64,000 bases of DNA from Candidatus Omnitrophota bacterium (GTDB lineage Bacteria; Omnitrophota; Gorgyraeia; Gygaellales; Profunditerraquicolaceae): positions 21,885 to 85,884 of the forward strand of contig JAQURC010000004.1 in NCBI GenBank assembly GCA_028715785.1. The letters run 5' to 3'. Made by a program: the position numbers and the translations under genes. The notes below the pieces were generated by a model. It had not been told where the DNA came from, made no database searches, and saw nothing but the letters and a program-made list of their open reading frames with translations. Below, one piece after another: positions 571 through 58,371 of the stretch (the first letter of the stretch is position 1; every line of letters begins with the position of its first letter).

Positions 571-2124
571 TCAATGCTTGAAGTGCCTTATGCCGGTAGT
601 AACCATGGCAATCTTATATTTATCGCAGGAAGCGATAATTTCTTGATCGGCGATAGAGCCTCCGGGCTGGATTATCGCTTTGGCCCCGGCCTTATGCGCC
701 CAGGAGATGGCGTCTGCTTTGGGGAAAAAGGCGTCCGAAGCCAAACAGCAATTTTTACTTAAGCTTCCGGCTTTATTTTTGGCAATCATTACCGAATCTA
801 CGCGGGACATCTGCCCGGCGCCGATACCGACGGTCCGGGTCCCGGAAGCCAAAATAATCGCGTTTGATTTTACGTGCTTGGCCACCTTCCAGGCAAAAAT
901 TAAAGTTTCCAGTTCTTTTTTACCGGGTTTCTTTTTGGTTACGACTTTAAGCTTATTCAAATCCAGGGTTGCTAAATCTTTACTCTGTAAAAGCAGGCCG
1001 CCGCTGACGCGTTTGACCTGCGGCTCATCGACAACATCCAGATCCTTTAGCTCAATCAGGCGTAAATTTTTCTTCTCTTTAAATAAATTTATTGCTTCCT
1101 GATCAAAGCCGGGAGCGATAATACATTCCAGAAACCCGCTCTTGAGTATAATTTTGGCGGTGGCCAAATCCATTCTTCTGTTTAAAGCCACGATACCGCC
1201 GAAGGATGAAAGCTTGTCGGTTTTCCAGGCGTTTAAATATGCCCGCTCCAGTTTTTTATCTTCCGCAACTCCGCAGGGATTGTTGTGCTTGACGATTACC
1301 GCCGCCGGATTTTGAAACTCTTTGACTAATTCCAGGGCAGCGTCAAGATCCAGGATATTGTTAAAAGAAAGTTCTTTACCTTGCAGTTGTTTTAAATTAA
1401 TCAAGCCGGCGGACTTCCCCTTTTCCCTGTAGAAAGCCCCCTTTTGATGCGGATTTTCTCCGTAACGCAAATCTTGGATTTTTTCAAAAGCTAAAACAAG
1501 CTCTTGAGGGAAAGCTCCTGTTTCTTTTTTAGTTTTATAAAAATTGGATAAATAATTATGGATTGAGGCGTCATATTTACTGGTGTGCCCGTAAACTTCA
1601 ACGCCTAATTCAACCATTAAATCTTCGGATAAAGCGCCGTTATTCTTTTTTAGCTCGGAGATTACCTGAGGATAACGCTGCGGATTACAAATTACCGCTA
1701 CCGACTGACAGTTTTTAGCGGCTGAACGCAGCAGGGAAGACCCGCCGATATCGATATTTTCAATAACCTCTTCAATGCTTACTCCGGGCTTCTGCGCGGC
1801 CCTTTCAAAAGGGTATAGATTAACCACGACCATATCAATGGGAGAGATGTCATGTTCGGCTATTGTCCGCAGGTGTTCGGGGTTATTGCGCAGGGCAAGC
1901 AGCCCGGCGTGGATCTTAGGATGCAGGGTCTTCACCCTTCCGTCGAGTATCTCCGGGAATCCCGTGTAAGCGGAAACTTCGGTTACCGCGATATTATTCT
2001 GGCGCAAAAGTTTTGCCGTACCGCCGGTAGAAATGATCTCCACGCCAAAATTCTTTAATTCCCCGGCTAATTCGATAATGCCGGTTTTATCCGATAAACT
2101 GATCAGGGCCCTTTGAATTTTTAT
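571..2124 (-). CDS. purH: Bifunctional AICAR transformylase / IMP cyclohydrolase PurH.
   Basis: Full-length similarity to PurH: the MGS-like N-domain MIKIQRALISLSDKTGIIELA and the AICARFT domain. The track ORF extends to 2244, but its first 40 aa are Arg-rich and non-homologous, so the start is more likely the Met at 2124. Confidence 0.9.
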   Translation of the reverse strand: MKIQRALISLSDKTGIIELAGELKNFGVEIISTGGTAKLLRQNNIAVTEVSAYTGFPEILDGRVKTLHPKIHAGLLALRNNPEHLRTIAEHDISPIDMVVVNLYPFERAAQKPGVSIEEVIENIDIGGSSLLRSAAKNCQSVAVICNPQRYPQVISELKKNNGALSEDLMVELGVEVYGHTSKYDASIHNYLSNFYKTKKETGAFPQELVLAFEKIQDLRYGENPHQKGAFYREKGKSAGLINLKQLQGKELSFNNILDLDAALELVKEFQNPAAVIVKHNNPCGVAEDKKLERAYLNAWKTDKLSSFGGIVALNRRMDLATAKIILKSGFLECIIAPGFDQEAINLFKEKKNLRLIELKDLDVVDEPQVKRVSGGLLLQSKDLATLDLNKLKVVTKKKPGKKELETLIFAWKVAKHVKSNAIILASGTRTVGIGAGQMSRVDSVMIAKNKAGSLSKNCCLASDAFFPKADAISWAHKAGAKAIIQPGGSIADQEIIASCDKYKIAMVTTGIRHFKH

Positions 2125-2292
2125 CATTTGAAGAGTATAAGTTGTGTCATTGCCAGGAGCGCAGCGGTTGCGAGGCGAAGCCGAAGCAAACCAGCAGCCC
2201 CTCGCAACTGGATTCCTTCGCTTCGCTCGGAACAGGCTGCGCAATCTAAAAAAGGATTGCTTCGCCCCTTCGGGGCTCGCGATGACACAGGA
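2125..2292 (-). promoter_or_regulatory. Structured purH 5' leader. Candidate riboswitch, possibly the ZTP/pfl class that often precedes purH. It also contains the ychF-like terminator hairpin GCCCCTTCGGGGC (2264-2276).
   Basis: The 168-nt spacer is GC-rich with several interlocking inverted repeats: GAGGCGAAGCCGAAGC pairs with GCTTCGCTTCGCTC, and UGUGUCAU at the 5' end pairs with AUGACACA just before the start codon. Confidence 0.3.
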
Positions 2293-2994: not shown

Positions 2995-3006
2995 AATAGG
3001 AATCTA

Positions 3007-3087
3007 GGGGACGGTCCTGTTTTTCTATACTTTGTAGCTGACGTTTAAACGTCAGCTACTCTGTGGATAACAAATAGAACCGTCCAC
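3007..3087. repeat. Palindromic intergenic repeat family R1, copy b. Central perfect palindrome at 3034-3059, DnaA-box consensus TGTGGATAA at 3062-3070.
   Basis: 64 nt identical to copy a. It lies between the kamA stop (3094) and the ychF-like start (2994). Confidence 0.85.
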
Positions 3088-3093
3088 TTTATT

Positions 3094-4281
3094 TTATTCC
3101 AGGTAGGTGTAAATCTTGCCCTTATAATTGCGCAGCACATATTTACCCTTGGCCTGGGAAAGGATATAATTTGGCCCCACAGGTATCTTTCCGCCGCCGC
3201 CGGGCCCGTCGATAACATAGGTCGGAACGGCGTAACCTGAAGTATGCCCGCGCAATTTCTCGATAATATTTATCCCCACGGCTACCGGGGTGCGGAAATG
3301 CTGTGTGCCCCTTACCGGGTCGCACTGATAAATATAATATGGCCTTACTCTCATTTGCAGAAGATCATGCATCAGGCGCTTCATAATAAACGGCCGGTCG
3401 TTGATGCCCTTAAGGAGCACCGACTGGCTGCCTAAAGGTATGCCGCTTTCAGAAAGCAAATCGCAGGCATTCTTGCAGCGCTTAGTAATCTCTTTGGGAT
3501 GATTAAAATGGATGCTCATCCAGATAGGAGAATATTTCTTGATCATATTTACCAGATTTTCGGTAACCCGCTGCGGTAAAGTTGCCGGGATACGCGTACC
3601 GATCCTCAACAATTCGACATGCGATATGTCGCGGATCTTGGCAATCAGGGATTCCAATGCCTCATCCTCTAAGGTAAGCGGATCCCCTCCGGAAATCAAT
3701 ACATCCCTGATCTTACGGTTAGCTTTAATATACTCTATGGCCGCATCGAATTTAGTTTCGGGGTTTGTTTCTTTTTCTTCATGATCACCCACGAGGCGCC
3801 GCCGGGTGCAATGCCGGCAATACATCGCGCAATGCTCCGTAGCCAATAAGAGGACCCTGTCCGGATAGCGGTGCACCAGATGCGGCGCCGGAGAATCCCG
3901 GTCTTCAGCGCAAGGATCGGCCATTTCGTGCGGGGAAATCGAGAATTCATCGCCGACCGGTACAGACTGCCTGCGGATGGGGCAATCCGGATCTTCGGTA
4001 TCAATCAGGCTTGCCCAATAAGGAGTAACGGCCATGGCCAACCTTCCCTTGGCTTTATCAATTCCTTTTTCCTCCTGGGGAGTAAGTTTAATGATCTGGG
4101 TCAATTCTTCCTTGGTGCGTATCCTGTGTTTAAGCTGCCAATGCCAATCCTCCCAATCCAACGGGTTGACATCCTTAAAGAGCGGGATCTGCTGATAATC
4201 GCGCCAACGCCTCGGAGGCCGCGGCATAACCGGCGTTTCAATTTGTGTTTTTTGGTTTTCTGAACCTTCGGGGTTACTCAA
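3094..4281 (-). CDS. kamA: Lysine 2,3-aminomutase family radical-SAM enzyme (KamA/EpmB-like).
   Basis: Radical SAM cluster motif CAMYCRHCTRRR, then ISGGDPL and the KamA-family C-terminal region. The ORF carries a roughly 50-aa N-terminal extension. Its start overlaps the stop of the upstream ATP-grasp gene by 4 nt. Confidence 0.85.
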   Translation of the reverse strand: MSNPEGSENQKTQIETPVMPRPPRRWRDYQQIPLFKDVNPLDWEDWHWQLKHRIRTKEELTQIIKLTPQEEKGIDKAKGRLAMAVTPYWASLIDTEDPDCPIRRQSVPVGDEFSISPHEMADPCAEDRDSPAPHLVHRYPDRVLLLATEHCAMYCRHCTRRRLVGDHEEKETNPETKFDAAIEYIKANRKIRDVLISGGDPLTLEDEALESLIAKIRDISHVELLRIGTRIPATLPQRVTENLVNMIKKYSPIWMSIHFNHPKEITKRCKNACDLLSESGIPLGSQSVLLKGINDRPFIMKRLMHDLLQMRVRPYYIYQCDPVRGTQHFRTPVAVGINIIEKLRGHTSGYAVPTYVIDGPGGGGKIPVGPNYILSQAKGKYVLRNYKGKIYTYLE

Positions 4282-42230: not shown

Positions 42231-44672
<2,442 letters not shown>

Positions 44673-44957: not shown

Positions 44958-44961
44958 ATTA

Positions 44962-46056: not shown

Positions 46057-46197
46057 TTTAGGCTCCCCTTTTATTTATATATATTTAAAAACTTAAAATA
46101 ACAGTAGTCATAAAGGGCCCGCATGTTTGTTTACAAAGACTTAACTTGTTGCAATATGTCTAATTATAACAAATATTGTAATCTAATAACCTGGGGA

Positions 46198-47535
46198 TCA
46201 CTGTTTAATAACTTGAATAATTTTTTCCACCCGGGTCTTTAATTCCGGGTTACGGTGTATGTCTTCCTTGAGTTTATTATAAGAATGTAAAACTGTTGTG
46301 TGGTCCTTGCCGCCAAAAAGCTCTCCAATCTCCGGCAGAGACAGATCAGTCAACTCCCTGCTTAGATACATCGCGATTTGTCTTGGGAACACGACTTGTT
46401 TATTGCGCCGCTTGGTTTTAAGGTCTTGCAGGGAAATCCCGAATTCTTCAACCACGCAGCGCTGGATAAAATCCACCGTGATTAATTTTGTCGGCTCCTT
46501 GAGCAGGTCTTTTAAAACATCTTTAGTTAATTGCAGGGTAATCGGGGCCTCCTCCAGTAAAGAATAAGCAATGGTCCTGACCAAAGCCCCTTCTAGTTCG
46601 CGGATGTTAGTCTTGATTAATTGGGCGATAAAAAAAATTACTTCATCGGGGACATTAACCGGTTCGCGCTCAATTTTTTTCTTAAGGATGGCCACGCGGG
46701 TTTCTAAATCCGGAGGCTGGATATCGGTGGCCAGCCCCCAGCCGAACCGTGAAACCAGCCTTTCCTGTAAATTGGTAATTTCTTTGGGGGGCCGGTCCGA
46801 AGAAAACACGATCTGTTTGTGCGCATCATATAAAGTATTAAAAGTGTGAAAAAATTCTTCCTGGGTCGATTCCTTTCCGGCGATAAAGTGGATATCGTCG
46901 ATAACCAAAACATCGAGATTGCGGTATTTTTGGCGGAAGGCCGCGGTGGAACGGTGGACGATAGCGTCGATCAGTTCGTTGGTAAATTTTTCACTTGAGA
47001 CATAGCATATTTTTACGCCCGCTGGATTACTGTTTTTTATTTGATGGCAGATCGCCTGGATCAGGTGGGTTTTGCCCAGCCCCACCCCGCCGTAAATAAA
47101 TAGCGGGTTATATGTTTTGGCCGGTGAATTGGCCACTGCCAGCGAATAAGCGTGCGCATGCCGGTTGGACGGACCCACCACAAAATTTTCAAATGTATAA
47201 CGCGAATTAAGATTGATAAATCCGGCAGCCGGAGCGGTTTTAATATTTGCTTCGGGATAAGAATGAACAGCGCTTAAATCTTCCTGCACACTGCTAACAA
47301 CCAGCCTTACTAACAGATTATCCAGTCCTTTATGTTTTAAGGTTTCCAGAATAAGGTTGAGATAATGTTTTTCTACCCAATCTTTGAAAAACTGATCCGG
47401 CGCCTCCAGGTTGATACTTTGGTTATCCTGGATAGAAAGCCTCAATGGCGCTATCCAGGTAGCGTAGATAGTTTCTCCTAAGCTGGCCTTTAAATCTCTT
47501 TGCGTTTCTTCCCAATTTTTAGTAAGCTCGAACAT
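46198..47535 (-). CDS. dnaA: Chromosomal replication initiator DnaA.
   Basis: AAA+ Walker A GGVGLGKTHL, sensor motifs and the C-terminal DnaA-box-binding domain with RDHTTV. Confidence 0.9.
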   Translation of the reverse strand: MFELTKNWEETQRDLKASLGETIYATWIAPLRLSIQDNQSINLEAPDQFFKDWVEKHYLNLILETLKHKGLDNLLVRLVVSSVQEDLSAVHSYPEANIKTAPAAGFINLNSRYTFENFVVGPSNRHAHAYSLAVANSPAKTYNPLFIYGGVGLGKTHLIQAICHQIKNSNPAGVKICYVSSEKFTNELIDAIVHRSTAAFRQKYRNLDVLVIDDIHFIAGKESTQEEFFHTFNTLYDAHKQIVFSSDRPPKEITNLQERLVSRFGWGLATDIQPPDLETRVAILKKKIEREPVNVPDEVIFFIAQLIKTNIRELEGALVRTIAYSLLEEAPITLQLTKDVLKDLLKEPTKLITVDFIQRCVVEEFGISLQDLKTKRRNKQVVFPRQIAMYLSRELTDLSLPEIGELFGGKDHTTVLHSYNKLKEDIHRNPELKTRVEKIIQVIKQ

Positions 47536-47842
47536 GATTTTCTGACGGGGATCTACAGAGTTAACAGTTTATGCACAACTTGCATAAATCTGTGGATAAA
47601 ACAGGCGACCCGATTTTCTCTAAACAGAGTTATTATAACAGAGAGCAAACTCCTTGCAAGAAAAAAAGATAAACGTGAGTTATTATACAACAATATGTTG
47701 AAGCGTCAATAAAAAACTTGACCTCCAAATAAATCTATGTTACAATTCACAAAAATCAAGAAGATCGCTTTCATAAATTGCGGCTGATTTTCCAAGCCCC
47801 GTGTTTTCCATGAAAACAGGGGGCAAAAAAAGGAGATCCTGA
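47536..47842. other. Putative oriC in the dnaA-rpmH intergenic spacer, which also holds the divergent promoters. A consensus DnaA box TGTGGATAA lies at 47591-47599 and a 1-mismatch box TTATGCACA at 47569-47577. AT-rich stretches flank them.
   Basis: Gene orientation flips exactly here. A perfect 9-mer DnaA box is present, and the spacer lies between dnaA and rpmH as in many bacteria. Confidence 0.55.
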
Positions 47843-47980
47843 ATGAAAAAAAATTTAAAGACACCCACAAATATTGTCGGTAAAAAACGCCACGGGTTCC
47901 GCAGTAAAATGGCTTCTAAATCCGGACGTAAACTTTTGGCCCGTCGACGGAGCAAGGGCAGAAAACGACTTTGCATTTAA
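47843..47980 (+). CDS. rpmH: 50S ribosomal protein L34.
   Basis: [45 protein letters not shown], with SD AGGAG 7 nt upstream. 45 aa, below the ORF-track cutoff. Confidence 0.9.
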
Positions 47981-48195
47981 AAGTAAACCGCCCGGTGCTT
48001 GCGTTAATAGCGCTATACCAGGGATATGTAAGGCCGGCTATTCCGGCATGTTGCCGTTTTGAACCCAGCTGTTCCGAGTACGCAAAACAGGCAATTTTAA
48101 AATACGGATTAACTAAAGGAGTATTTAAGGGGCTAATCAGGATATTGCGCTGCCATCCTTTTTCCGGGCGGTCGGGTTATGACCCCTTAATATAA
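47971..48195 (+). CDS. yidD: Membrane protein insertion efficiency factor YidD.
   Basis: [57 protein letters not shown]. The ORF as drawn begins at TTG and overlaps the rpmH end; the true start may be the downstream GTG. Confidence 0.8.
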
Positions 48196-50006: not shown

Positions 50007-50798
50007 ATGGGTAAGATAATTACAATCTGCAACCAGAAAGGCGGGGTAGGAAAAACTACCACTTCGATTAACCTCGCGGCATATCTGGCGATGGCCGGAA
50101 AGAAGGTTATGCTCATTGATTTAGATCCTCAGGCCAATGCTACCAGCGGTATAGGAATAAACAAGCACGACATTCAAAAAAGCACTTATCATATTTTACT
50201 TGAAGAAGCAAAACTCGCCGATATTTTACAAAAAACCGCAATTGATAATTTAGTATTAGCTCCTTCTAATTTAGATTTGACCGGCGCAGAAGTAGAACTG
50301 GTCGGGGCATTGGGACGGGAATATAGGTTAAAGAGGGCGCTGCAAATTGAAAAAAATAATTATGATTTTATGATTATCGATTCCCCGCCTTCTTTAGGAC
50401 TGCTGACGATTAATGGATTATGCGCCGCTGACTCCGTAATCATTCCTGTCCAATGTGAATATTATGCCTTAGAAGGATTAACGCAACTACATAATACTAT
50501 TAGGCTTGTGAAAGAAAACCTTAATCCTTCTCTAAGTGTGGAAGGGGTGCTTTTAACCATGGCAGATTTTCGCACTAACCTGACCAAGGAAGTTATTCAG
50601 GAAGCGCGCGCTCATTTTAAAGATAAAGTTTATAGCACGGTTATCCCCAGGAATATTCGGCTTACCGAGGCTCCGAGTTTTGGCAAACCCATTATTTTAT
50701 ATGATAGCAATTCTCTGGGGGCGCAGAAGTACGAAGAGCTGAGTAAAGAAATTTTGGGTTCACCAGTAAATTCACCAATTCCAACACCCCGCGCTTAG
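50007..50798 (+). CDS. parA: Chromosome partitioning ATPase ParA (Soj).
   Basis: Deviant Walker A KGGVGKTT. The start is chosen at MGKIITI (50007). The track ORF begins earlier, at 49959. Confidence 0.85.
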   Translation: MGKIITICNQKGGVGKTTTSINLAAYLAMAGKKVMLIDLDPQANATSGIGINKHDIQKSTYHILLEEAKLADILQKTAIDNLVLAPSNLDLTGAEVELVGALGREYRLKRALQIEKNNYDFMIIDSPPSLGLLTINGLCAADSVIIPVQCEYYALEGLTQLHNTIRLVKENLNPSLSVEGVLLTMADFRTNLTKEVIQEARAHFKDKVYSTVIPRNIRLTEAPSFGKPIILYDSNSLGAQKYEELSKEILGSPVNSPIPTPRA

Positions 50799-50828
50799 AA
50801 GGTGTTGCGCGGGTGTGCCCTTGTGGGC
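50783..50828. repeat. GC-rich hairpin repeat family R2, copy a. It overlaps the last codons and stop of parA and ends 8 nt before the parB SD.
   Basis: AACACCCCGCGCTTAGAAGGTGTTGCGCGGGTGTGCCCTTGTGGGC is 44/46 identical to 57908-57953. A 10-bp GC stem with one bulge is followed by a GCCC-TTGT-GGGC minihairpin. Confidence 0.8.
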
Positions 50829-50844
50829 AAAAAGGAGCGGTTTA

Positions 50845-51702
50845 ATGGAGAGAAGAGCTTTAGGAAAAGGCCTGGCAGCGTTAATTCCCGAAAAAGCAGC
50901 TGATACCACGATACATAAAGAAGAAATTATTTATGTCCAGTTTGGACAAATAAAACCAAATCCATTTCAACCGCGGGAAGATTTTGATCCGCAAAGCATT
51001 GAAGAGCTGGCCCAGTCGATTAAAGAGAAAGGCGTTATTCAGCCGCTTTTAGTCAGGCAAAGAGGGGATAATTATGAATTAATTGCCGGAGAAAGAAGGT
51101 TACGTGCAGCTAACTCCTTGGGGCTCAAAGAGATACCAGTTATTGTACGCGATGTAAGCGACCAGGACTCTCTGGAATTAGCCTTGATTGAAAATATCCA
51201 AAGAGAAGGATTAAACCCCATTGAAGAAGCGCATGCCTATCAACACCTGATCGATAAATTCCAGGTCAGCCAGGAGAAGATCAGCGAGGCTTTAGGCAAG
51301 GCCAGGGTTTCGATTACCAATACCCTGCGTTTGCTTAAGCTCCCGCATGAAATTCAGGAGGAGATGAAAAAAGGCCGCATTAGTTTTGCCCATGGCCGCG
51401 CCCTGCTTGAGGTTGAAGACGCAAACGATCAGCGCAGGCTCACCCAGGATATTATTTCTAAAGGGCTTTCAGTGCGCGAACTGGAGAACCTGATTAAAAG
51501 CAAACGGCCCAAATCAATCAAAAGAAGCATCGGGCCAGGCCAGCGTGAACCGATAGTGGCGGTTTTGGAAGAACAACTGCAGCATGCCTTGGCCACCAAA
51601 GTCAGGATCAGCAAGAGAAAGAAACGCGGGCATATCAATATCGAGTTTTATTCACAGGAAGATTTGGAGCGCATAGTCAATGTCATTAAAGGAGGAAAAT
51701 AG
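50845..51702 (+). CDS. parB: Chromosome partitioning protein ParB (Spo0J).
   Basis: ParB box GERRLRA and an HTH. The start is chosen at MERRALGKG (50845), preceded by AAAAGGAG. The track ORF starts inside the R2 repeat, at 50815. Confidence 0.85.
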   Translation: MERRALGKGLAALIPEKAADTTIHKEEIIYVQFGQIKPNPFQPREDFDPQSIEELAQSIKEKGVIQPLLVRQRGDNYELIAGERRLRAANSLGLKEIPVIVRDVSDQDSLELALIENIQREGLNPIEEAHAYQHLIDKFQVSQEKISEALGKARVSITNTLRLLKLPHEIQEEMKKGRISFAHGRALLEVEDANDQRRLTQDIISKGLSVRELENLIKSKRPKSIKRSIGPGQREPIVAVLEEQLQHALATKVRISKRKKRGHINIEFYSQEDLERIVNVIKGGK

Positions 51703-51705
51703 ATA

Positions 51706-52209
51706 ATGGACCAGGCAGTCTTAATTTTAATTAAGCCCGACGGGCTAAAGAAATCCCTGACGGGCAATATCCTTACGCGCCTGTCTGAGACCAAGCTTGA
51801 AATTGTTGCCGCAAAAATGGTGCGTGTATCCAAAGAGCTGGCCGAAGACCATTACAGGCATTTAAAAGACAAGCCTTTCTTTGACGAAATCATTAAATAT
51901 TTACGGGGAGAGCTGCATGACCGCAAAAAAGTTATGGCCCTGGTTTATTGGGGCAATGATGCGATAAAGAAATGCCGGGATTTAGCCGGCTCGACCAATC
52001 CCGAAGAAGCAGAGTCAACTTCTATCCGCGGTTCTTACGGCAGGATTACTACCGGCGGAGTTTATGAAAACGTAATCCATGTCTCATCCAATGATTCCGA
52101 AGCCGAAAGAGAGATCAAGCTTTGGTTTAGCCCCGATGAAATTATCGTGGACCTCTATGCGACAAAAAATATCGTGCAGAAGGAATTTAAGAATAGGGTT
52201 TGGGCTTAA
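51706..52209 (+). CDS. ndk: Nucleoside diphosphate kinase.
   Basis: LILIKPDG and NVIHVSSNDSEAEREIKLWF, with the active-site His in NVIH. 167 aa. Confidence 0.8.
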   Translation: MDQAVLILIKPDGLKKSLTGNILTRLSETKLEIVAAKMVRVSKELAEDHYRHLKDKPFFDEIIKYLRGELHDRKKVMALVYWGNDAIKKCRDLAGSTNPEEAESTSIRGSYGRITTGGVYENVIHVSSNDSEAEREIKLWFSPDEIIVDLYATKNIVQKEFKNRVWA

Positions 52210-53048
52210 GAATGGGAAAAACGATCAGCAGTATGACCGGTTTTGGCAGCCACGAGGTAGAAATTGATTCTGTGGGCAGAATCAGCGTGGAATTAAGATG
52301 CACTAACCATAAATTTTTGGAGGCAGTTTTTAATTTACCCGAAGGATGGATCTCTCTGGAGGATAAATTCAAAAAAGAAATCGAAGGTAAAATCAGCCGG
52401 GGCAGGATTTATTGCGCCATCAACATACGGGAGCAGGTGGCGCAGGGGATATTTGTAAACCGCAAGCTGCTCAAAAATTATTTGCACCAGCTAAATAGCA
52501 TCAAGAAAGAATTCAGGATTAACGATGGCCTGACCCTCGATTCATTGATCCGGCTGCCGGGGATTTTATCGCTTAAAGAAAATAAACCCACAGGCGGACA
52601 CGTCTGGGAACAACTGAAACCCATCTTTTTGCAAGCGCTTACGGGATTGTTGAGCGCCCGTCATAAGGAGGGCAGCGCCTTGGCCTGTTTGCTAAAAAAC
52701 AGAAGCCAGCAGTTGAAGAAAGACCTAACTTTTATTAAACAGCGTTTTACAGTGGCGATAAAAAACAGGCTTGATAAGATCCCGGCTCAAGAAGAACGCT
52801 CGGCTTTTTTAAAAGGGGCGGATATTGCCGAAGAGATCGACCGCCTGCATTTTCACATAAACAATTTTCAGCAAAAGATTGTCAAAGGCGGCGTGGTTGG
52901 CAAAGAGCTGGATTTTATCACCCAGGAGATGCAGCGGGAGGCCAACACCTTGGCGGCAAAATCATTTGATCTGGCTATTTCGGGCCGGGCAGTGCAGATG
53001 AAAAGCCAAATTGAGAAGATCCGCGAACAGGTGCAAAATATAGAGTAG
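52200..53048 (+). CDS. yicC: YicC-family stress-induced protein.
   Basis: MTGFGSHEVEIDSVGRISVELRCTNHKFLE, the YicC N-domain, and the DUF1732 C-terminal region. 282 aa. Confidence 0.8.
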   Translation: MGLRMGKTISSMTGFGSHEVEIDSVGRISVELRCTNHKFLEAVFNLPEGWISLEDKFKKEIEGKISRGRIYCAINIREQVAQGIFVNRKLLKNYLHQLNSIKKEFRINDGLTLDSLIRLPGILSLKENKPTGGHVWEQLKPIFLQALTGLLSARHKEGSALACLLKNRSQQLKKDLTFIKQRFTVAIKNRLDKIPAQEERSAFLKGADIAEEIDRLHFHINNFQQKIVKGGVVGKELDFITQEMQREANTLAAKSFDLAISGRAVQMKSQIEKIREQVQNIE

Positions 53049-53647
53049 TGAAAGCCGACAAAAGACAAAACAAGCCGGGCAAAATTTTTGTTATCTGCGG
53101 GCCGTCAGGCTCCGGCAAAACCACCCTTCTGACCAGCTTAATCCAAGATAAAAAAATAGGCAAGTTGCTTGCAAAGTCACGCTCTCTTACCACCCGCCCA
53201 AAGCGCTCGGGAGAAAAGCAGGGCAGGGACTATTTTTTTGTTACCGCTCCGGAGTTCCGGCGGCTGTTAAAAGCAAAAAAAATTCTTGAATGGACCAGGT
53301 ATTTGGGCTATTATTACGGAACGCCCAGGGAGCCGCTGGAGAGCCAAATTAAAGGCGGCAGAAACCTCGGTTTATGTTTGGATCTTAAGGGCGCCCGGAT
53401 CCTTAAAAAAATATATCCTAAAAACACGGTAACGGTTTTTGTTTTACCGCCTTCGCTTAATGTGCTTAAAGCCAGGATCGAAAACCGCTGCAGCAAGACC
53501 AATAAAAAAGAGGTAGCCCGGCGCATACGCCTTGCGCGCAGGGAGCTATTGGCAGCTTCCGGTTTTGACTACTGCATCCTGAATCAAAACCTGCAAATCG
53601 CACTCAAAGAGTTAAAAGATATATTTTTACAAGAGATCGGCGCTTAA
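53048..53647 (+). CDS. gmk: Guanylate kinase.
   Basis: P-loop GPSGSGKTT and SLTTRPKRSGEKQGRDYFFV. Confidence 0.85.
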   Translation: MKADKRQNKPGKIFVICGPSGSGKTTLLTSLIQDKKIGKLLAKSRSLTTRPKRSGEKQGRDYFFVTAPEFRRLLKAKKILEWTRYLGYYYGTPREPLESQIKGGRNLGLCLDLKGARILKKIYPKNTVTVFVLPPSLNVLKARIENRCSKTNKKEVARRIRLARRELLAASGFDYCILNQNLQIALKELKDIFLQEIGA

Positions 53648-53671
53648 CATTTTACTTTTGGGGGGGTAAAG

Positions 53672-53881
53672 ATGGGTTATCAGGGCAGGGAGAAGATGTT
53701 AGACAAGAGCATGGGGTCAATTTATAAACTGGTAATTTTGGCTTCTAAAAGGGCTTTGGAGATCGCCGAAGGCCAGCCAAAATTAGTGGCAGATGATGCT
53801 TCGGTAAAGCCTTCTACCGTGGCTTTACATGAAATTACCGAAGGTAAGATCGAGGCCAGAAAAACAAAGGCAAAAGAATAA
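53672..53881 (+). CDS. rpoZ: DNA-directed RNA polymerase omega subunit.
   Basis: SIYKLVILASKRALEI matches the RpoZ core, in the conserved gmk-rpoZ context. 69 aa. Confidence 0.75.
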   Translation: MGYQGREKMLDKSMGSIYKLVILASKRALEIAEGQPKLVADDASVKPSTVALHEITEGKIEARKTKAKE

Positions 53882-54426
53882 TGGCCAAAACAGAGAAGAA
53901 TATCATTTTGGGAGTAACTGCCAGTATTGCTATTTATAAAGCCTGCGAGCTGGTCCGGATGCTCAAAAAATGCGGCTTTACCGTCAATGTGGTGATGACC
54001 AAAGAAGCTCAGGAGTTGATTAAGCCGGTTGTTTTTCAAGCCTTGAGCGGCAACCGGGTCTATCGGGGCGGAATATTTGACGAGCAGGATACCTGGGAAA
54101 TTGAGCACATATCCTTGGCGGAAAAAGCGGACCTGATTTTGATTGCTCCGGCAACCGCCAATATCATCGCCAAACTTGCCTGCGGTATCTGCGATGATCT
54201 TTTAAGCTGCACGGTCTGCGCAAGCAGGGCCAGGGTTTTGATCGCTCCGGCGATGAATGAGAATATGTACAAAAATAAGATCACCCAAAGCAATATCGCG
54301 AAATTAAAATCCCGCGGTTATAAATTTATCGGCCCGGTTAGCGGAATGCTTGCTTGCGGGGCGGCGGGGGTGGGTTGTTTGGCGGAGACTGAAGAGATTG
54401 TCAAGCAGGTGAAAAAAATATTATAA
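53881..54426 (+). CDS. coaC: Phosphopantothenoylcysteine decarboxylase flavoprotein (CoaC domain only, not fused to CoaB).
   Basis: IILGVTASIAIYKACELVRMLKK, PAMNENMY and a substrate-recognition clamp with ACG. 181 aa. Confidence 0.75.
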   Translation: MAKTEKNIILGVTASIAIYKACELVRMLKKCGFTVNVVMTKEAQELIKPVVFQALSGNRVYRGGIFDEQDTWEIEHISLAEKADLILIAPATANIIAKLACGICDDLLSCTVCASRARVLIAPAMNENMYKNKITQSNIAKLKSRGYKFIGPVSGMLACGAAGVGCLAETEEIVKQVKKIL

Positions 54427-54430
54427 TTTT

Positions 54431-54505
54431 GGCGACGTAGCCAAGTGGTAAGGCAGTTGTCTGCAAAACAACTATTCAGCGGTCCGATTCCGCTCGTCGC
54501 CTCCA
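54431..54505 (+). tRNA. tRNA-Cys (anticodon GCA), with encoded CCA.
   Basis: GGCGACGTAGCCAAGTGGTAAGGCAGTTGTCTGCAAAACAACTATTCAGCGGTCCGATTCCGCTCGTCGCCTCCA. The anticodon loop is CUGCAAA. Confidence 0.85.
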
Positions 54506-54520
54506 AATTTTTGTTGAAAA

Positions 54521-55195
54521 ATGCCGCAAAAAAGAAAAGAATTAAAAATTGAAGGGGCTAATCTTTGGTATCTGGTAGGGTTGATTACCAGCGACGGATG
54601 TTTATCGAAAGATGGTAGGCATGTAGATATTACATCTAGCGACCATGACTTTCTTAGCAAAATAAAAAACAAATTTAGCTTAACAAATAGAATAGGCATT
54701 AAGAATAAAGAAAAGATCAACTTAGCGTATTATATACAGATATCCAATAAGAATTTTTATGATTTTTTATTATCAATTGGTTTGATTCCAAATAAGTCCT
54801 TAACTTTAGGCAGACTTGATGTTCCCAAAGAATTTTTTAATGATTTTTTAAGGGGTTTAATAGGCGGGGATGGTTCATTGCGTAGTTGGCGACATGCAAC
54901 AAATTTACACATGCAGTGGTCTTTGAGTGTATTTTCAGCATCTGAAGTATTTATCAAATGGCTGCAAACCGTAATAGAAGCATATTTGAGTTGCAGAGGA
55001 AAGATACATTCTGTATTAAGGCCCGATCGTATCAACCCTATTTATACACTAAAATATGGTAAAATGGCTGCGAAAGAGATTACGAAACACTGTTATTATG
55101 AAAATTGTTTTGGTTTAGACAGAAAAATAAAATTAGCACAAGAGTGCCTTGGCTCATATGGGGGTTGGACTCAAAGTAAAACAGTTCTTAATTAA
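54521..55195 (+). CDS. Free-standing double-motif LAGLIDADG homing endonuclease.
   Basis: Motif 1 LVGLITSDGCL and motif 2 FLRGLIGGDGSL are about 95 aa apart. 224 aa. The region is visibly AT-rich relative to its flanks. Confidence 0.8.
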   Translation: MPQKRKELKIEGANLWYLVGLITSDGCLSKDGRHVDITSSDHDFLSKIKNKFSLTNRIGIKNKEKINLAYYIQISNKNFYDFLLSIGLIPNKSLTLGRLDVPKEFFNDFLRGLIGGDGSLRSWRHATNLHMQWSLSVFSASEVFIKWLQTVIEAYLSCRGKIHSVLRPDRINPIYTLKYGKMAAKEITKHCYYENCFGLDRKIKLAQECLGSYGGWTQSKTVLN

Positions 55196-55206
55196 AATTT
55201 AATATT

Positions 55207-55289
55207 GGGCAGGTGTTGGAATGGCAGACAATGGAGACTTAAAATCTCCCGTTCGCAAGAGCATGAGGGTTCGACTCCCTCCCTGCCCA
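55207..55289 (+). tRNA. tRNA-Leu (anticodon TAA), type II with a long variable arm, CCA not encoded.
   Basis: GGGCAGGTGTTGGAATGGCAGACAATGGAGACTTAAAATCTCC-CGTTCGCAAGAGCAT-GAGGGTTCGACTCCCTCCCTGCCCA. The anticodon loop is CUUAAAA. The gene is continuous, with no intron. Confidence 0.8.
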
Positions 55290-55298
55290 CTAAAATCA

Positions 55299-55372
55299 GG
55301 GCTCATAGCTCAGTTGGTTAGAGCGTTGCGTTGACATCGCAAAGGTCAGTGGTTCAAGTCCACTTGGGCCCA
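55299..55372 (+). tRNA. tRNA-Val (anticodon GAC), CCA not encoded.
   Basis: GGGCTCATAGCTCAGTTGGTTAGAGCGTTGCGTTGACATCGCAAAGGTCAGTGGTTCAAGTCCACTTGGGCCCA. The anticodon loop is UUGACAU. Confidence 0.85.
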
Positions 55373-55399
55373 ATTAAACTTTTTTATTAAGTATAAAAT

Positions 55400-57160
55400 A
55401 TGGATCTATCTACTTTAAGGCATTCATGTTCCCATGTTCTGGCTCAGGCGGTAAAAGAGCTGTGGCCAGAGGTAAAATTAGCCATTGGCCCGGCAATCGA
55501 AGACGGATTTTACTATGATTTTGATAAAGAGGGGCCTTTTAGCGACGAGGATCTGTTGGCGATTGAAGAGAAGATGCGCCAGATTATCGCAAAAAATGAG
55601 CCTTTTTTACGCGAAGAATTAGATAAGGCCCAGGCAATCAAATTATTTAAGCAGCTAAAAGAAGATTATAAGGTCCAGCTTATCCAGGATTTAGCGGGCC
55701 AGGCGATTTCTATTTATAAAACCGGCCAGGCTTTTTTGGATCTTTGCCGCGGGCCGCATATAAAATCTACCGGAGAAATCAAGGTTTTTAAGCTGTTGTC
55801 GGTTGCCGGGGCTTATTGGCACGGGATTGAAACTAACCCCATGCTGCAGAGGATTTACGGCACCTGTTTTAATTCGCAAAAAGAGCTGGATGAGTATTTA
55901 AAAAATTTAGAGGAAGCGAAATCGCGCGACCACCGAAAATTGGGTCCGCAATTAGGGTTCTTTGATATTTATCATGAGCAGGCAGGTGCAGGGCTGGTGT
56001 TTTATCATCCCAAGGGAGCGCTCCTGCGCACGATCATCGAGGATTACGAGAGAAAAGAGCATTTAAAACGCGGATACCAGATTGTAATTACCCCGCATAT
56101 CATGGATGCTGCCCTCTGGAAAACCAGCGGCCATTATGATTATTACAAAGAAAACATGTACACCTTTGCTACCGAAGGCAAGGAGTTTGTTTTGAAGCCG
56201 ATGAATTGCCCGGGGCATATTTTGATCTATAAATCAAAAACCAGAAGTTATAAAGACCTGCCCATACGTTTATTTGAACTGGGTACGGTTTACCGCCGGG
56301 AAAAAGCGGGGGTTTTACACGGGCTGTTGCGCGTGCGCGGGTTTACCCAAGATGACGCCCACGTTTTCTGTTTACCCGAACAATTACCGGATGAAATTAA
56401 AAAAATCATCGATTTTGTTTTTGAAACAATGAAGGTATTTGGTTTTAATCAGTGGGGAGTGGAATTAAGCACCCGCCCTGAAAAATATATCGGCTCGGAG
56501 GAAGATTGGCAGAAGGCGACCGAGGCATTAGAAAATGCCTTAAAAGATAAAGGCATCCCTTATGAAATCAACCAGGGGGACGGCGCGTTTTACGGCCCGA
56601 AAATCGATATCAAGTTAAAAGACGCGCTGAAGAGGACCTGGCAATGCGCGACTATTCAATGCGACTTCGCGCTGCCTAAAAGATTTGATCTGGTTTATAT
56701 TGATACCGACGGAAAAGAAAAACAGCCGATCATGCTGCACCGTGTTCTATTGGGCAGCTTAGAGCGTTTTATCGGGGCTTTGATTGAGCATTATAAAGGA
56801 GAGCTGCCCTTATGGCTTAGCCCTTGCCAGGTTTTATTAATTCCGCTTAAAGAAACAGTTATTTCTTATGCTCAGACAGTAAAGAGCAAGTTGGAAGACA
56901 ATAATATACGCGTTGAACTGGATACGCGCAATGAAACCCTGAATAAAAAAATCCGTGAAGCCGAGCTGAATAAAATTCCCTACTGTTTAATTATCGGTGA
57001 GCGTGAAGCAAAACAGGAGCAGGTAAGCGTGCGTAAAAAAGGAAGCGGCCAGCGGCTTTGGCAAGAGGAAGCCAAACCACGGCCTGCCGGCCAGCAGGGC
57101 GCGGTTGCTTTAGATAAATTTATCGAGGAATTAACTAACCGGATTAAGGAGCATAAATAG
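55400..57160 (+). CDS. thrS: Threonine--tRNA ligase lacking the N-terminal TGS domain.
   Basis: Editing domain with HSCSHVLAQAV, class II catalytic core and a C-terminal anticodon-binding domain. At 586 aa it starts at the N2 domain. Confidence 0.85.
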   Translation: MDLSTLRHSCSHVLAQAVKELWPEVKLAIGPAIEDGFYYDFDKEGPFSDEDLLAIEEKMRQIIAKNEPFLREELDKAQAIKLFKQLKEDYKVQLIQDLAGQAISIYKTGQAFLDLCRGPHIKSTGEIKVFKLLSVAGAYWHGIETNPMLQRIYGTCFNSQKELDEYLKNLEEAKSRDHRKLGPQLGFFDIYHEQAGAGLVFYHPKGALLRTIIEDYERKEHLKRGYQIVITPHIMDAALWKTSGHYDYYKENMYTFATEGKEFVLKPMNCPGHILIYKSKTRSYKDLPIRLFELGTVYRREKAGVLHGLLRVRGFTQDDAHVFCLPEQLPDEIKKIIDFVFETMKVFGFNQWGVELSTRPEKYIGSEEDWQKATEALENALKDKGIPYEINQGDGAFYGPKIDIKLKDALKRTWQCATIQCDFALPKRFDLVYIDTDGKEKQPIMLHRVLLGSLERFIGALIEHYKGELPLWLSPCQVLLIPLKETVISYAQTVKSKLEDNNIRVELDTRNETLNKKIREAELNKIPYCLIIGEREAKQEQVSVRKKGSGQRLWQEEAKPRPAGQQGAVALDKFIEELTNRIKEHK

Positions 57161-57174
57161 AAAGGGAGGCTGCT

Positions 57175-57681
57175 ATAAAAAAGTTTATTCGGATTAACGA
57201 CAGGATCAGTTCCCCGCAGGTCAGGGTCATCGGCCATGACGGGGGCCAATTAGGAGTGATGTCTGTGCAAAGGGCAATAGAGATTGCCAATCAACACGAT
57301 CTGGATTTAGTCGAGGTCGCCCCGGCGGCTACCCCGCCGGTTTGCCGGATCATTGAATTCAGTAAATTTAAATATGACCTTGAGAAGAAGGAACGTGAAT
57401 CAAAGAAGCATCAAAAACAGGGGCGTTTAAAAGAAATCCGGCTTAAGCCCAATATCGATGAGCATGATTTCGAAACCAAGGTTAAGCAGGTGGTAAGTTT
57501 TTTGAAGAAAAAAGATAAAGTCAGGGTCAACCTTTTTTTCCGCGGCAGGCAGATGGAGCATGTGGATCTGGGAAGAAAGGTTTTAGATAAATTTATCGCC
57601 GTAACACAGAGCGATGGGCAGGTAGAGAAGGCGCCGTCATTAGAAGGCAGAATTATGTCTTTTGTGATTGCCCCGAAATAA
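57175..57681 (+). CDS. infC: Translation initiation factor IF-3, probably initiated at a non-AUG codon (ATA/ATT-type).
   Basis: The in-frame upstream translation IKKFIRINDRISSPQVRVIGHDGGQLGVMS is conserved IF-3 N-domain, so the real start lies upstream of the first ATG at 57256. SD GGGAGG is at 57164-57169 and ATA at 57175. The exact start codon is uncertain. Confidence 0.75.
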   Translation: MKKFIRINDRISSPQVRVIGHDGGQLGVMSVQRAIEIANQHDLDLVEVAPAATPPVCRIIEFSKFKYDLEKKERESKKHQKQGRLKEIRLKPNIDEHDFETKVKQVVSFLKKKDKVRVNLFFRGRQMEHVDLGRKVLDKFIAVTQSDGQVEKAPSLEGRIMSFVIAPK

Positions 57682-57701
57682 GGTATAATAAGGAGATCAA
57701 T

Positions 57702-57902
57702 ATGGGTAAATTAAAAACAAAAAGAGGGGTGGCTAAACGCTTTAAACTTAGCAAGAGAGGCAAGGTTAGATATTCAGCCGGTGGTAAAAGCCACCTGGCT
57801 TCATCTAAAAAAACAAAGAAGATAAGGAACTTAAAGAGGCGCAGGACGCTTAGCGGTAAAAAAGAGGTAAGGTTTATTAAGTCCATGTTACCTTATGGAT
57901 AG
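57702..57902 (+). CDS. rpmI: 50S ribosomal protein L35.
   Basis: MGKLKTKRGVAKRFKLSKRGKVRYSAGGKSHL. 66 aa. Confidence 0.9.
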   Translation: MGKLKTKRGVAKRFKLSKRGKVRYSAGGKSHLASSKKTKKIRNLKRRRTLSGKKEVRFIKSMLPYG

Positions 57903-57907
57903 ATTCT

Positions 57908-57953
57908 AACACCCCGCGCTTATAAGGAGTTGCGCGGGTGTGCCCTTGTGGGC
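57908..57953. repeat. GC-rich hairpin repeat family R2, copy b, between rpmI and the rplT SD.
   Basis: AACACCCCGCGCTTATAAGGAGTTGCGCGGGTGTGCCCTTGTGGGC. It ends 2 nt before the AGGAGA SD of rplT. Confidence 0.8.
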
Positions 57954-57965
57954 TAGGAGAAAATA

Positions 57966-58313
57966 ATGGCAAAGGCTAAACATAGTGTAGCAACGCGTAA
58001 AAGGAAAAAGAGAGTTTTAAAGCAGGCTAAAGGATTCTGGGGGGACCGCAGCAAGCAATATCAACAGGCAGAAAGAGTCCTGATGCATGCGCTTAAATAT
58101 GCTTATCGGGACCGCCGGAATAAAAAACGGGAAATCCGCAGCCTCTGGATTGTACGGATTAACGCGGCTTGCCGGGAGGCAGGGATTACTTACAGCGCAT
58201 TTATGAGCGGGCTAAAGAAATCCAAAATCAACCTGGATCGCAAGATCCTGGCGGATTTAGCGGTAAGGGACAACCATGCTTTTAAAAAGCTGGTGGATAT
58301 AGTTAAGAAATAA
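57966..58313 (+). CDS. rplT: 50S ribosomal protein L20.
   Basis: [26 protein letters not shown]. 115 aa. Confidence 0.9.
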
Positions 58314-58318
58314 AGATA

Positions 58319-58357
58319 CCCGGCGCTAATGTAGAATTGCGCCGGTGCGTGTTTGTA
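58319..58357 (+). terminator. Rho-independent terminator after rplT.
   Basis: CCCGGCGC-UAAUGUAGAAUU-GCGCCGG(UG) followed by the U-rich CGUGUUUGU. Confidence 0.55.
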
Positions 58358-58371
58358 CACGAGAGGTTATT

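Follow-up and report, generated by a model that had tools for sequence, protein, structure and literature searches.

A 46-nt double-hairpin repeat next to Shine-Dalgarno sequences in Candidatus Omnitrophota, probably a small mobile element

The three hairpin copies found in a 64,000-nt stretch of Candidatus Omnitrophota DNA (contig JAQURC010000004.1; hereafter the window) probably belong to a small, non-autonomous, dispersed repeat that is mobile or at least duplicative. Judged from sequence comparison, we give this reading a probability of about 0.72. Its copies form a dispersed family characteristic of Candidatus Omnitrophota, and it is probably a genome-wide mobile repeat instead of a dedicated regulator of parB or L20. 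By the same comparison, its copy at the parA-parB junction appears to be a recent insertion in the 3' end of parA that is absent from most close relatives.

The original prediction described two 46-nt copies, identical at 44 of 46 positions, and both are real (Table 1). The two mismatches lie in the loop (TTAGAAGGTGTT vs TTATAAGGAGTT), and each copy is predicted to fold as proposed, with a 10-bp stem containing one bulged C, a 12-nt loop and a GCCC-UUGU-GGGC minihairpin. The copies were also rightly called GC-richer than their surroundings (0.63–0.65 versus about 0.44 in local DNA). A stem-anchored pattern hits exactly these two sites in the window, with 0 expected from 100 shuffles. When the core is extended in the 5' direction (50778-50828 and 57903-57953), 48 of 51 positions agree. 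The 5 nt 5' of the core are ATTCY in both copies; relatives have them even where the site is empty, which makes them native flank outside the element. Pfam confirmed the ParA, ParB, L35 and L20 products of the genes around the copies. Copy a overlaps the parA stop codon as predicted, and the distance from its end to the parB Shine-Dalgarno sequence (SD) is 3–5 nt instead of the 8 nt first given. Copy b begins 5 nt past the rpmI stop codon and, as predicted, ends 2 nt short of the GGAG in the rplT SD. A third, diverged copy escaped the original prediction; its helices (P1 CCGGCGC/GCGCCGG, P2 GUGU-UUGU-ACAC) carry compensatory changes in both stems. Of the roughly 40 genes in the window that are led by an SD, just 3 have a copy.

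Table 1. Element copies, neighbouring signals and empty target sites in the window (a slash divides the two flanks of a site)
Feature	Coordinates	Strand	Description
Copy a	50783..50828	+	Apparently inserted into 3' end of parA; covariance model 71.9 bits
Copy a helices	P1 50784-50786 + 50788-50794 with 50807-50816; P2 50817-50828		Bulged C 50787; loop 50795-50806
parA stop TAG	50796..50798	+	Within P1 loop of copy a
Native parB SD and start	50832..50847	+	AAGGAG 50832-50837, ATG 50845-50847
Empty target parB>ndk	51686..51708	+	ATTAAAGGAGGAAAATAGATAATG; occupied in at least 9 of 80 relatives, by one copy, tandem copies or nested ones
Empty target infC>rpmI	57682..57704	+	TATAAT/AAGGAGATCAATATG; in relatives, one copy in L085 and about 3 tandem copies in L037
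Copy b	57908..57953	+	Near family consensus; between rpmI stop (TAG 57900-57902) and rplT SD; 75.1 bits
rplT SD and start	57954..57968	+	TAGGAG 57954-57959, ATG 57966-57968
Copy c, diverged subfamily	58315..58360	+	Covariance model 37.7 bits, E 4e-8; rplT stop (TAA 58311-58313) on one side, SD GAGAGG (58361-58366) and ATG (58372) of a TrkA-like gene on the other

The motif search and the covariation analysis that had been proposed with the original prediction were run, and the element proved neither confined to the window nor unconserved in relatives. A strict pattern finds at least 67 low-GC loci from at least about 41 Omnitrophota MAGs, and the whole family exceeds 100 copies, spread over metagenomes and the MAGs of about 40 Omnitrophota species. 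The covariance model recovers 88 copies among the loci listed, which together with the three window copies make up the 91 copies used for the statistics below. The density is about 1 copy per 20–35 kb, which extrapolates to some 10^2 copies per genome; both this number and the restriction to the phylum are extrapolations from the loci listed. In the alignment, 98.3% of cells at the paired positions are paired and 10 of 14 pairs vary on both sides; none of 500 shuffles reaches the observed values, and the pairing collapses when pairing partners are slid. A search of the element against Rfam gave no match at the gathering score or at E<=10, L20_leader included.

Placement relative to genes is strict. 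Nearly all copies (90 of 91) share the orientation of the downstream gene, 77 of 91 have a same-strand ORF upstream, and the upstream stop codon lies inside the stem or no more than 15 nt from it in 57 of these 77. The SD core, typically GGAG, is mostly at +2 past the element (60 of 91), and +2 is A in 86 of 91 copies. The start codon follows mostly 11–16 nt beyond the element. This offset ranges from 9 to 18 nt and keeps to no one frame, so the element holds no conserved ORF. In a 17-gene cluster, the five junctions with a WAAGGAG-type SD are the same five that are ever occupied, whereas the weak-SD junctions are occupied in 0 of 12 cases. Strict SD adjacency could reflect purifying selection against insertions elsewhere instead of targeting. 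The downstream genes include those for EF-Tu (tuf), DnaK, GroES, ClpP, S7, S8, S13, S16, L31, SSB and AtpE, and further PEPCK, GS-III, GDH, Amt, P-II, Skp and MlaD. The same housekeeping genes are occupied in different species, a recurrence that selection for a function would explain no less than a target hot spot.

Because the whole element comes and goes as one block, we take it to be mobile or duplicative; this block behaviour was not foreseen by the original prediction. For example, the closest relative (L110; ParB 91% identical) has an empty site at parA-parB, AATTCC/AAAAGGAG, with an intact parA-parB overlap (TAATG), and the window junction equals such an L110-type site plus exactly 46 nt 5' of the SD. 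About 55 of 77 relatives are empty here with the TAATG overlap, covariance-model copies occur in only 4 of 80, and the parB SD of the window is also found at the empty sites. In other relatives, unrelated hairpin repeats fill the parA-parB gap. The end of ParA is rewritten by the insertion, with its last four residues replaced (IPTPRA-stop vs IPKGAS-stop). The consensus loop TTATAAGG would be read through in the ParA frame at copy a, whose TAG in the loop is due to a T16>G change relative to this consensus.

Filled and empty states coexist among relatives at five junctions, parA>parB and four more. Throughout the infC-rpmI-rplT-trkA synteny, every junction has the element in some genomes and lacks it in others. 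Of two syntenic relatives, one carries it at rpmI-rplT (L085 filled, L037 empty), and both are empty at the rplT>TrkA-like junction that holds copy c. The parB>ndk junction, empty in the window, has model matches in 8 relatives. One subfamily (CCGGCGC/GUGU-ACAC) occupies three non-orthologous junctions, namely rplT>TrkA-like in the window, infC>rpmI in L085 and parB>ndk in L170, and tandem, nested and truncated copies exist (tandem/nested in L119, for instance). Short direct repeats flank some insertions that could be reconstructed, being AA at infC>rpmI and rpmI>rplT, and AAGG at parB>ndk in L133 and parA>parB in L115; other insertions have none, and left and right dinucleotides are uncorrelated across copies. 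There are no terminal inverted repeats, the 5' end ACACCCCGCGC being unrelated to the reverse complement of the 3' end GCCCACAAGGGC. In the 1.06 Mb sampled (about 0.3% of each genome), we found no transposase and no autonomous parent in the form of a split element with a 0.13–3 kb insert, and the sole inverted pair of copies (L010) has ordinary genes between.

We propose that the element would insert as a block on the sense strand, either between the end of an upstream gene and a WAAGGAG-type SD or, where a gene comes first, in its 5' leader; from this position it should be co-transcribed into mRNA. Each hairpin pairs within itself, which would leave the SD free, and the A-rich 5' edge (T/AA) and the loop (UUAUAA) may often supply a stop codon to the interrupted upstream frame. 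A ready stop codon together with a free SD could let the element precede essential, highly expressed genes at little cost. The SD thus looks like a landing site, not a regulated target, and we infer that the SD region is the insertion target more than the sole tolerated location, and that the element is near-neutral for downstream translation. As PMC12306157 summarises Liang et al. 2015, a REP in E. coli that has under 16 nt between it and a stop codon makes ribosomes stall at termination and reduces expression of the gene before it. By analogy, the element may cut the yield of the cistron upstream and break the coupling of pairs that once overlapped, parA-parB among them. A dedicated enzyme might mobilise the element; alternatively, template switching driven by microhomology at AA or AAGG could do so.

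A host function is the most serious competitor of the mobile reading, though we hold it to be unlikely: the element would be a cis-acting RNA module fused to the SD, which boosts, insulates or stabilises highly expressed genes, or binds a regulator or the ribosome, and which spread because it was useful. Possible mechanisms are coaxial stacking of P2 on the SD-anti-SD helix, protection by a 5' hairpin from exonucleases once the mRNA is processed, and a CsrA-type clamp between a GGA in the loop and the GGA in the SD. The consensus sequence, beyond the fold, is almost invariant over about 40 species, as such a module would have it, and identity across species is 90% in the element versus 58% at third codon positions (synonymous sites being near saturation). 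This invariance exceeds what selfish decay would lead one to expect and would also suit a sequence-specific host partner. The fixed spacing from P2 to the SD, the enrichment of highly expressed housekeeping genes downstream and their recurrence across species likewise speak for a function, whereas close relatives fare well without the element at parA>parB and at the four other mixed junctions. Predicted accessibility from SD to start codon is 0.552 in the native sequence, 0.528 with the element deleted and 0.513 with it shuffled, a gain that is significant but amounts to just +0.02 to +0.04. UAAGGA is frequent in the loop and GGA is present in the SD at most copies; against a module, the loop has GGA in only 54 of 86 copies (only GGU in 20, no GG in 12). 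Moreover, tandem, nested and truncated copies are unexpected of a tuned leader, one variant stands at unrelated junctions, and the parA-parB gap accepts unrelated hairpin repeats as well.

Much less probable is a classical REP moved by a RAYT (TnpA-REP) tyrosine transposase, or a PATE-type derivative of IS200/IS605. The original prediction suggested a REP-like generic intercistronic element, of which the generic part is strongly supported by the copy number and species range, while the REP part finds no support in the signature sequences. REPs carry an unpaired GTAG or CGTC at one end of a 20–40 bp palindrome and often form inverted dimers (PMC3733652). They stand chiefly downstream of genes, exceed 100 copies per genome and go with a cognate RAYT gene. 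The Omnitrophota consensus has neither tag on either strand; in the element and the 8 nt on either side of it, 10 of the 91 copies have GTAG in sense and 2 in antisense, and 1 and 3 copies have CGTC, at variable positions. All copies less than 300 nt apart are in direct orientation (6:0), never inverted dimers, and 46 nt with two hairpins differ from one such palindrome. Both kinds are short, GC-rich, dispersed hairpins between co-directional genes, transcribed in operons and near stop codons, but REPs, BIMEs and REPINs are tied to the 3' end of the preceding gene, the Omnitrophota element to the downstream SD. The lack of terminal inverted repeats and of a regular target duplication, the two different end hairpins and the oriented insertion by a short motif do resemble single-strand HUH transposition; very thin sampling of each genome turned up neither a Y1 transposase nor a long split element.

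Mycobacterial MIRUs appear to be the best analogue. They are described as mobile and as landing at the translation-initiation region with minimal disturbance of target-gene expression (PMC3184786; PMC12548453). Both families are on a 40–100 bp scale with tens of copies per genome, lie co-oriented and co-transcribed in operon gaps (here inferred from position), contain GC-rich internal inverted repeats, and show filled and empty sites and short (tetranucleotide) direct repeats. The Omnitrophota element agrees with the MIRU description in its 46-nt length, the same-strand upstream ORF and sense orientation of most copies, and its filled and empty orthologous sites. However, a MIRU enters at the start codon, and its own small ORF becomes translationally coupled to the target gene with a spacing of -4 nt, whereas the present element lies 5' of the SD, lacks a conserved ORF, keeps the native SD and consists of two self-contained hairpins; the likeness, across phyla, is one of description.

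Small mobile repeats are also touched on in general reviews (PMC3184786, PMC2229807). Copy a, which rewrites the C-terminus of ParA, recalls them. ERIC/IRU, Correia (NEMIS), RUP/BOX and rickettsial RPE are MITE-like, non-autonomous repeats in transcribed intergenic or even coding DNA; their transcripts form hairpins, and they can change the C-terminus of a protein or the fate of an mRNA. With a length of at least 100–170 bp, terminal inverted repeats and usually TA duplications, and found in either orientation, these repeats are unlike the 46-nt element, which has no terminal inverted repeats and is in sense and SD-adjacent in nearly every copy. As a self-folding module directly 5' of the RBS, the element may also be likened to synthetic RBS insulators (RiboJ-type hairpins, bicistronic designs) and plastid intercistronic expression elements, in which such a module frees initiation from upstream sequence. 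Such modules come from engineering or need a protein or ribozyme, whereas here the predicted insulation is very small and no cleavage activity is indicated. We regard the family as an SD-adjacent 46-nt repeat of Omnitrophota with no Rfam match, no REP tags and no terminal inverted repeats, apparently MIRU-like in kind.

In other bacteria, L20 autoregulates through an mRNA structure. Regulation of a single gene, whether by an L20 autoregulatory leader, by a ParB-related site or by an intrinsic terminator or attenuator lying between cistrons, would suit copy b directly before rplT and copy a at parA-parB, but is extremely improbable, since dozens of unrelated genes are preceded by the same element, as the original prediction had argued from parB against an L20-specific leader, and the rpmI-rplT junction of L037 lacks it. 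The L20_leader family and the E. coli-type rpmI operator, whose place would be the infC-rpmI-rplT leader only, were rejected on the Rfam result and on the unrelated genes downstream of other copies. An intrinsic terminator was rejected as well: terminator-like and promoter scans of the window flagged none of the three copies, and the hairpins are followed by WAGGAGG with no T-run.

Beyond a near-neutral mobile repeat, a bolder and rather doubtful idea is that the element is an SD-guided mobile module, whose machinery reads the SD motif, or a domesticated, phylum-wide translation-initiation cassette. In the former version, the P1 loop UUAUAAGGAAUU, which is itself struck by nested insertions, would mimic the empty target of stop codon plus SD. 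In the latter, the ribosome or an Omnitrophota-specific RNA-binding protein would read the invariant loop and stems and set the output of the most expressed genes. If true, either version would be a previously undescribed link of mobile DNA to a translation-initiation signal.

The 46-nt element consists of a bulged stem and loop (P1) and a minihairpin (P2), and it adjoins the Shine-Dalgarno (SD) sequence of the downstream gene. We consider it, with a probability of roughly 0.7, to be a small intercistronic mobile repeat, strictly sense-oriented, SD-adjacent and broadly spread across an uncultured phylum. What sets it apart is its SD adjacency in strict sense orientation and its phylum breadth; small intercistronic mobile repeats as such are known already.

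An unbiased repeat search of the window returned a two-copy family (48 of 51 positions identical), whose core agrees with the original prediction of two 46-nt copies at 44/46 identity. A stem-anchored pattern hit only these two sites in the window, where none was expected by chance. The predicted fold of both copies was reproduced, with a 10-bp GC-rich stem that has a single bulged C and a 12-nt loop and adjoins the minihairpin GCCC-UUGU-GGGC, and the flanking genes are ParA, ParB, L35 and L20 (Pfam). Copy a does overlap the parA stop, which lies in its loop, and copy b, which starts 5 nt past the rpmI stop, does end 2 nt 5' of the rplT GGAG; the distance from copy a to the parB SD, put at 8 nt, is actually 3–5 nt. 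Copy c, found with a covariance model of the family, carries compensatory changes in both helices, namely CCGGCGC/GCGCCGG, and GUGU...ACAC replacing GCCC...GGGC. A fourth candidate was discarded.

Coordinates of element copies and other features (positions in the window, unless a locus from another genome is named)
Feature	Position	Context	Detection
Copy a	50783-50828	parA>parB	
Copy b	57908-57953	rpmI>rplT	
Copy c	58315-58360	between rplT stop and SD + start of TrkA-like gene	covariance model, E 4e-8
Two-copy family	50778-50828; 57903-57953	extended copies a and b	repeat search
parA stop (TAG)	50796-50798	loop of copy a	
parB start codon	50845		
Discarded candidate	63605-63640	hairpin within coding region	E 0.18
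GC skew sign switch	about 44000-48000	beside yidC-parA-parB	
Sigma-70-like promoter match	57662-57689	infC 3' end, just 5' of rpmI SD	TTGTGA-16-TATAAT (10/12)
95-nt repeat	477-571; 3001-3095	directly past stops of minus-strand genes 571..2244 and 3094..4281	
Antisense copy	L010:5791-5835	normal stop-to-SD gap	
Nested copy	L119:1184-1274	in P1 loop of another copy	
Copy in high-GC contig	L081:5170-5240	half copy 5' of it	
Arg/Lys-rich ORF	L043:174-300; L052:1249-1360	directly 3' of element	

Near 46 kb the GC skew switches sign and the genes turn from the minus to the plus strand, which probably marks the region of the replication origin; the three copies are all on the leading-strand side and point in the direction of replication. 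The window also contains a 95-nt repeat unrelated to the element (copies 93% identical), which forms a long and nearly perfect hairpin (-54 kcal/mol, z -11.6) of terminator-like look; its inner hairpin GTAGCTGACGTTTAAACGTCAGCTAC has a GTAG tag as in classical REPs.

A pattern scan with fixed stems and free loops, using one genome per species, matched at least 109 loci. Among those listed, 42 are actinomycete or proteobacterial DNA (Streptomyces and others) and were taken as chance matches, because they lie in DNA of GC 0.6–0.78 and show neither loop nor outer stem nor SD context. At least 67 of the matches listed are low-GC loci (GC 0.36–0.50) from about 41 MAGs. These MAGs, from groundwater, lakes, marine sediment, peat and deep mines, carry the label Candidatus Omnitrophota or, where the label is "uncultured Planctomycetales", encode proteins that closely resemble those of Omnitrophota. 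The window itself is Omnitrophota-like: its L20 and that of MAG nzgw296 are identical at 101 of 115 positions, and the order infC-rpmI-rplT-trkA is common to both. The genome-wide search proposed with the original prediction thus yielded further copies, at least 88 beyond the window in the low-GC loci listed. No Rfam family matches the element, as searches at the gathering score and at E<=10 returned only tRNAs and noise, and no description of it was found in work on Omnitrophota/Omnitrophica RNA motifs, SDs, palindromic repeats or MITEs; the main Omnitrophota genomics paper relied on Rfam alone for its RNA annotation. Viral contigs gave 0 matches. A good copy in L081, a contig of GC 0.61 labelled Deltaproteobacteria, has no SD or ORF behind it; the contig may be mis-binned or chimeric, or the element may occur rarely beyond Omnitrophota.

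Filled and empty sites were compared in 80 parB loci of relatives (ParB 75–91% identical). In the closest relative (L110; ParB 91%), the parA>parB junction is empty and reads ...AATTCACAAATTCC|AAAAGGAGCGTCTTAATGGAA, with the parB SD inside parA and a TAATG overlap of parA stop and parB start. Adding precisely the 46-nt unit at the bar gives the window sequence, in which the last four residues of ParA are changed from KGAS to TPRA. The TAG that now ends parA exists only because copy a has G where the consensus loop has T, one of the two positions at which copies a and b differ. About 55 of 77 relatives are empty here, four hold a model copy, and a few more contain a different subfamily, a degenerate copy or an unrelated hairpin repeat. 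The parB>ndk junction, empty in the window, is occupied in nine or more relatives, where copies are single, in tandem or nested. Occupancy also differs among three syntenic infC-rpmI-rplT-trkA loci, those of the window, L085 and L037: infC>rpmI is empty in the window, with one copy in L085 and about three tandem copies in L037; rpmI>rplT is filled in the window and L085 and empty in L037; rplT>trkA is filled in the window and empty in both others. Moreover, the CCGGCGC/GUGU-ACAC variant is found at rplT>trkA in the window, at infC>rpmI in L085 and at parB>ndk in L170, and one derived variant at non-orthologous sites is expected of a propagating subfamily, not of independent evolution in place.

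In L119 one copy is nested in another, and P1 loops may be hit because their sequence UUAUAAGGAAUU is similar to an unoccupied "stop + SD" target. Nested copies and orphan 5' or 3' halves were also seen downstream of parB in L127, L128, L136 and L150. Where junctions could be reconstructed, they have AA or AAGG as direct repeats, too inconsistent for a target-site duplication. In five relatives (L118, L140, L135, L114 and L122), unrelated hairpin repeats lie in the same parA>parB stop-to-SD gap, about 60–100 nt upstream of the parB start, including a CACTGAG...CTCAGTG family (L118, L140) and CTAACCAGGTTAGAT as a direct or inverted repeat (L135), so several families of SD-adjacent hairpin insertions seem to coexist in these genomes. 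At infC>rpmI in L085, the element lies precisely between the -10 box of the predicted promoter within the infC 3' end and the rpmI SD, and a transcript from this promoter would therefore begin within or at the foot of P1.

The family consensus is (T)AACACCCCGCGC-UUAUAAGGAAUU-GCGCGGGUGU-GCCCUUGUGGGC-(A/U)A-GGAGG. Covariation, likewise proposed as a check, supports the helices in the 79 distinct copies among the matches listed, with 98.3% of cells paired and double changes in 10 of 14 pairs, although these statistics lean towards structure since the alignment was fitted to the model. None of 500 shuffles matched these values, and pairing collapsed when the partners were slid; the outer-stem switch ACAC/UGU -> AUAC/UAU was seen ahead of any model building. 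Sense G.U wobbles exceed C.A ones by 34 to 9 overall and by 12 to 8 minus the outermost pair, and given the latter count the asymmetry does not discriminate between a fold that acts as sense RNA and one that acts as DNA. On its 3' side the element is flanked by [A/T]-A-G-G-A-G-G; among the 91 copies listed, position +2 is A in 86, the SD core stands at +2 in 60, and the start codon is mostly 11–16 nt downstream. Orientation is sense to the downstream gene in 90 of these 91. The sole antisense copy is inverted in the gap between two minus-strand genes of L010, thus sense orientation is strongly preferred, not absolute. A T directly precedes the element in 58 of the 91 copies listed, making a TAA that is the true upstream stop in 18, and in 11 others the stop is in the loop. 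The idea of stops in all three frames was rejected, for the consensus gives two only (T|AA at the 5' edge and TAA at loop positions 16–18); the T16>G change required for the third frame is found in copy a.

Of the junctions in the window's cluster of 17 plus-strand genes, those filled in at least one genome belong to parB, ndk, rpmI, rplT and trkA, exactly the genes with a WAAGGAG-like native SD (chance assignment 1 in 6188), and 0 of the 12 genes with a weak or no SD were ever occupied. The SD pre-exists insertion, as it is seen in empty alleles. This pattern in the sequences favours landing of the element at the SD. Alternatively, selective retention may lie behind the occupancy of strong-SD junctions; strong SDs tend to go with highly expressed genes, which would also account for the housekeeping genes downstream.

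Across species whose synonymous sites approach saturation the consensus hardly varies, which speaks for more than a passenger. Orthologous copies are 90% identical, compared with 58% at third codon positions; in one pair, proteins are 54% identical and the elements 44/46. Canonical copies in general have a mean column identity of 93%, and since 90% is not above this value, the constraint is on the family, not on each site, and in-situ purifying selection is not inferred from orthologous pairs. Such constraint may act via conserved mobilising machinery or a host partner. A CsrA-type reading of the loop is weakened, with GGA in the loop of only 54 of 86 copies (63%) among the matches listed.

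No terminator or promoter was predicted at any of the three window copies. For the segment from element end to start codon in 64 of the loci listed, the predicted unpaired probability is 0.552 for the native sequence, 0.528 with the element deleted and 0.513 with it shuffled. The differences are significant (p = 0.0009 and 0.008) yet tiny, and about all that this predicted accessibility shows is that the element is self-contained and leaves the SD unoccluded. As for the upstream gene, 77 copies among the matches listed have an upstream ORF, and in 57 of them its stop lies <=15 nt from P1 or inside it. In E. coli, terminating ribosomes stall at REPs <16 nt from the stop and upstream gene output falls (Liang et al. 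2015, as relayed in PMC12306157); by analogy, the element may lower upstream output in a REP-like manner. At parA-parB, where the TAATG overlap is replaced by a 46-nt spacer, the two cistrons should be uncoupled.

Profile-verified downstream genes in the loci listed encode EF-Tu, DnaK, GroES, ClpP, S7, S8, S13, S16, L31 and SSB, as well as ATP synthase c, PEPCK, GS-III, GDH, Amt, P-II, Skp and MlaD; the window adds ParB, L20 and a TrkA-like protein, and two other MAGs add L35. This set is diverse and largely housekeeping, and of the roughly 40 SD-led genes that the window contains just 3 have the element, which indicates that it is neither gene-specific nor generally needed for initiation. Such diversity and sparse occupancy remove the reading as an L20 operator. 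The original view that the element is generic held up; its parB and L20 context is incidental. An Arg/Lys-rich ORF of 33–36 aa (MPCGKKRKRQKIKTHKRKKMRRRLRHLKKRAWG) follows the element in two species (L043 and L052); it has no Pfam match and resembles small basic ribosomal peptides such as bS22.

Among known families, classical REPs have a GTAG or CGTC tag and form inverted dimers, whereas the element has neither and contains two hairpins. Hence "generic REP-like element" stands as to generic, given many unrelated downstream genes, and fails as to a classical REP. MITEs have terminal inverted repeats, which the element lacks. No autonomous parent was found in 1.06 Mb with thin sampling per genome, where only nested or tandem copies and chance coding-sequence matches appeared; an inverted element pair in L010 flanks genes that by appearance are Lrp-like, NAD-synthetase-like and PhoU-like, not a transposase. 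The closest precedent is the MIRU, a 40–100 bp intercistronic repeat, co-oriented and co-transcribed with flanking genes, with GC-rich inverted repeats, filled and empty sites and tetranucleotide direct repeats, described as mobile, inserting at start codons with minimal impact on target genes (PMC3184786, PMC12548453). The element shares this logic, but it would land at the SD rather than the start codon, has no coupled ORF and relies on two self-folding hairpins.

For annotation, hairpins of this kind in Omnitrophota, ultra-small uncultured bacteria with compact genomes, should not be taken for gene-specific leaders, terminators or L20 operators. The element changes the 3' ends of genes (here the ParA C-terminus) and breaks stop/start overlaps, and it is usable as a strain-typing marker because its presence differs among close relatives. 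Its occurrence in stop-to-SD gaps before tuf, dnaK, groES, clpP and ribosomal protein genes is a natural experiment on how far initiation regions tolerate structured RNA. If a dedicated enzyme does recognise an SD-proximal target, it could be a possible site-specific insertion tool. Beside MIRUs, the element would be a second independent case of mobile DNA using translation-initiation sites as safe havens.
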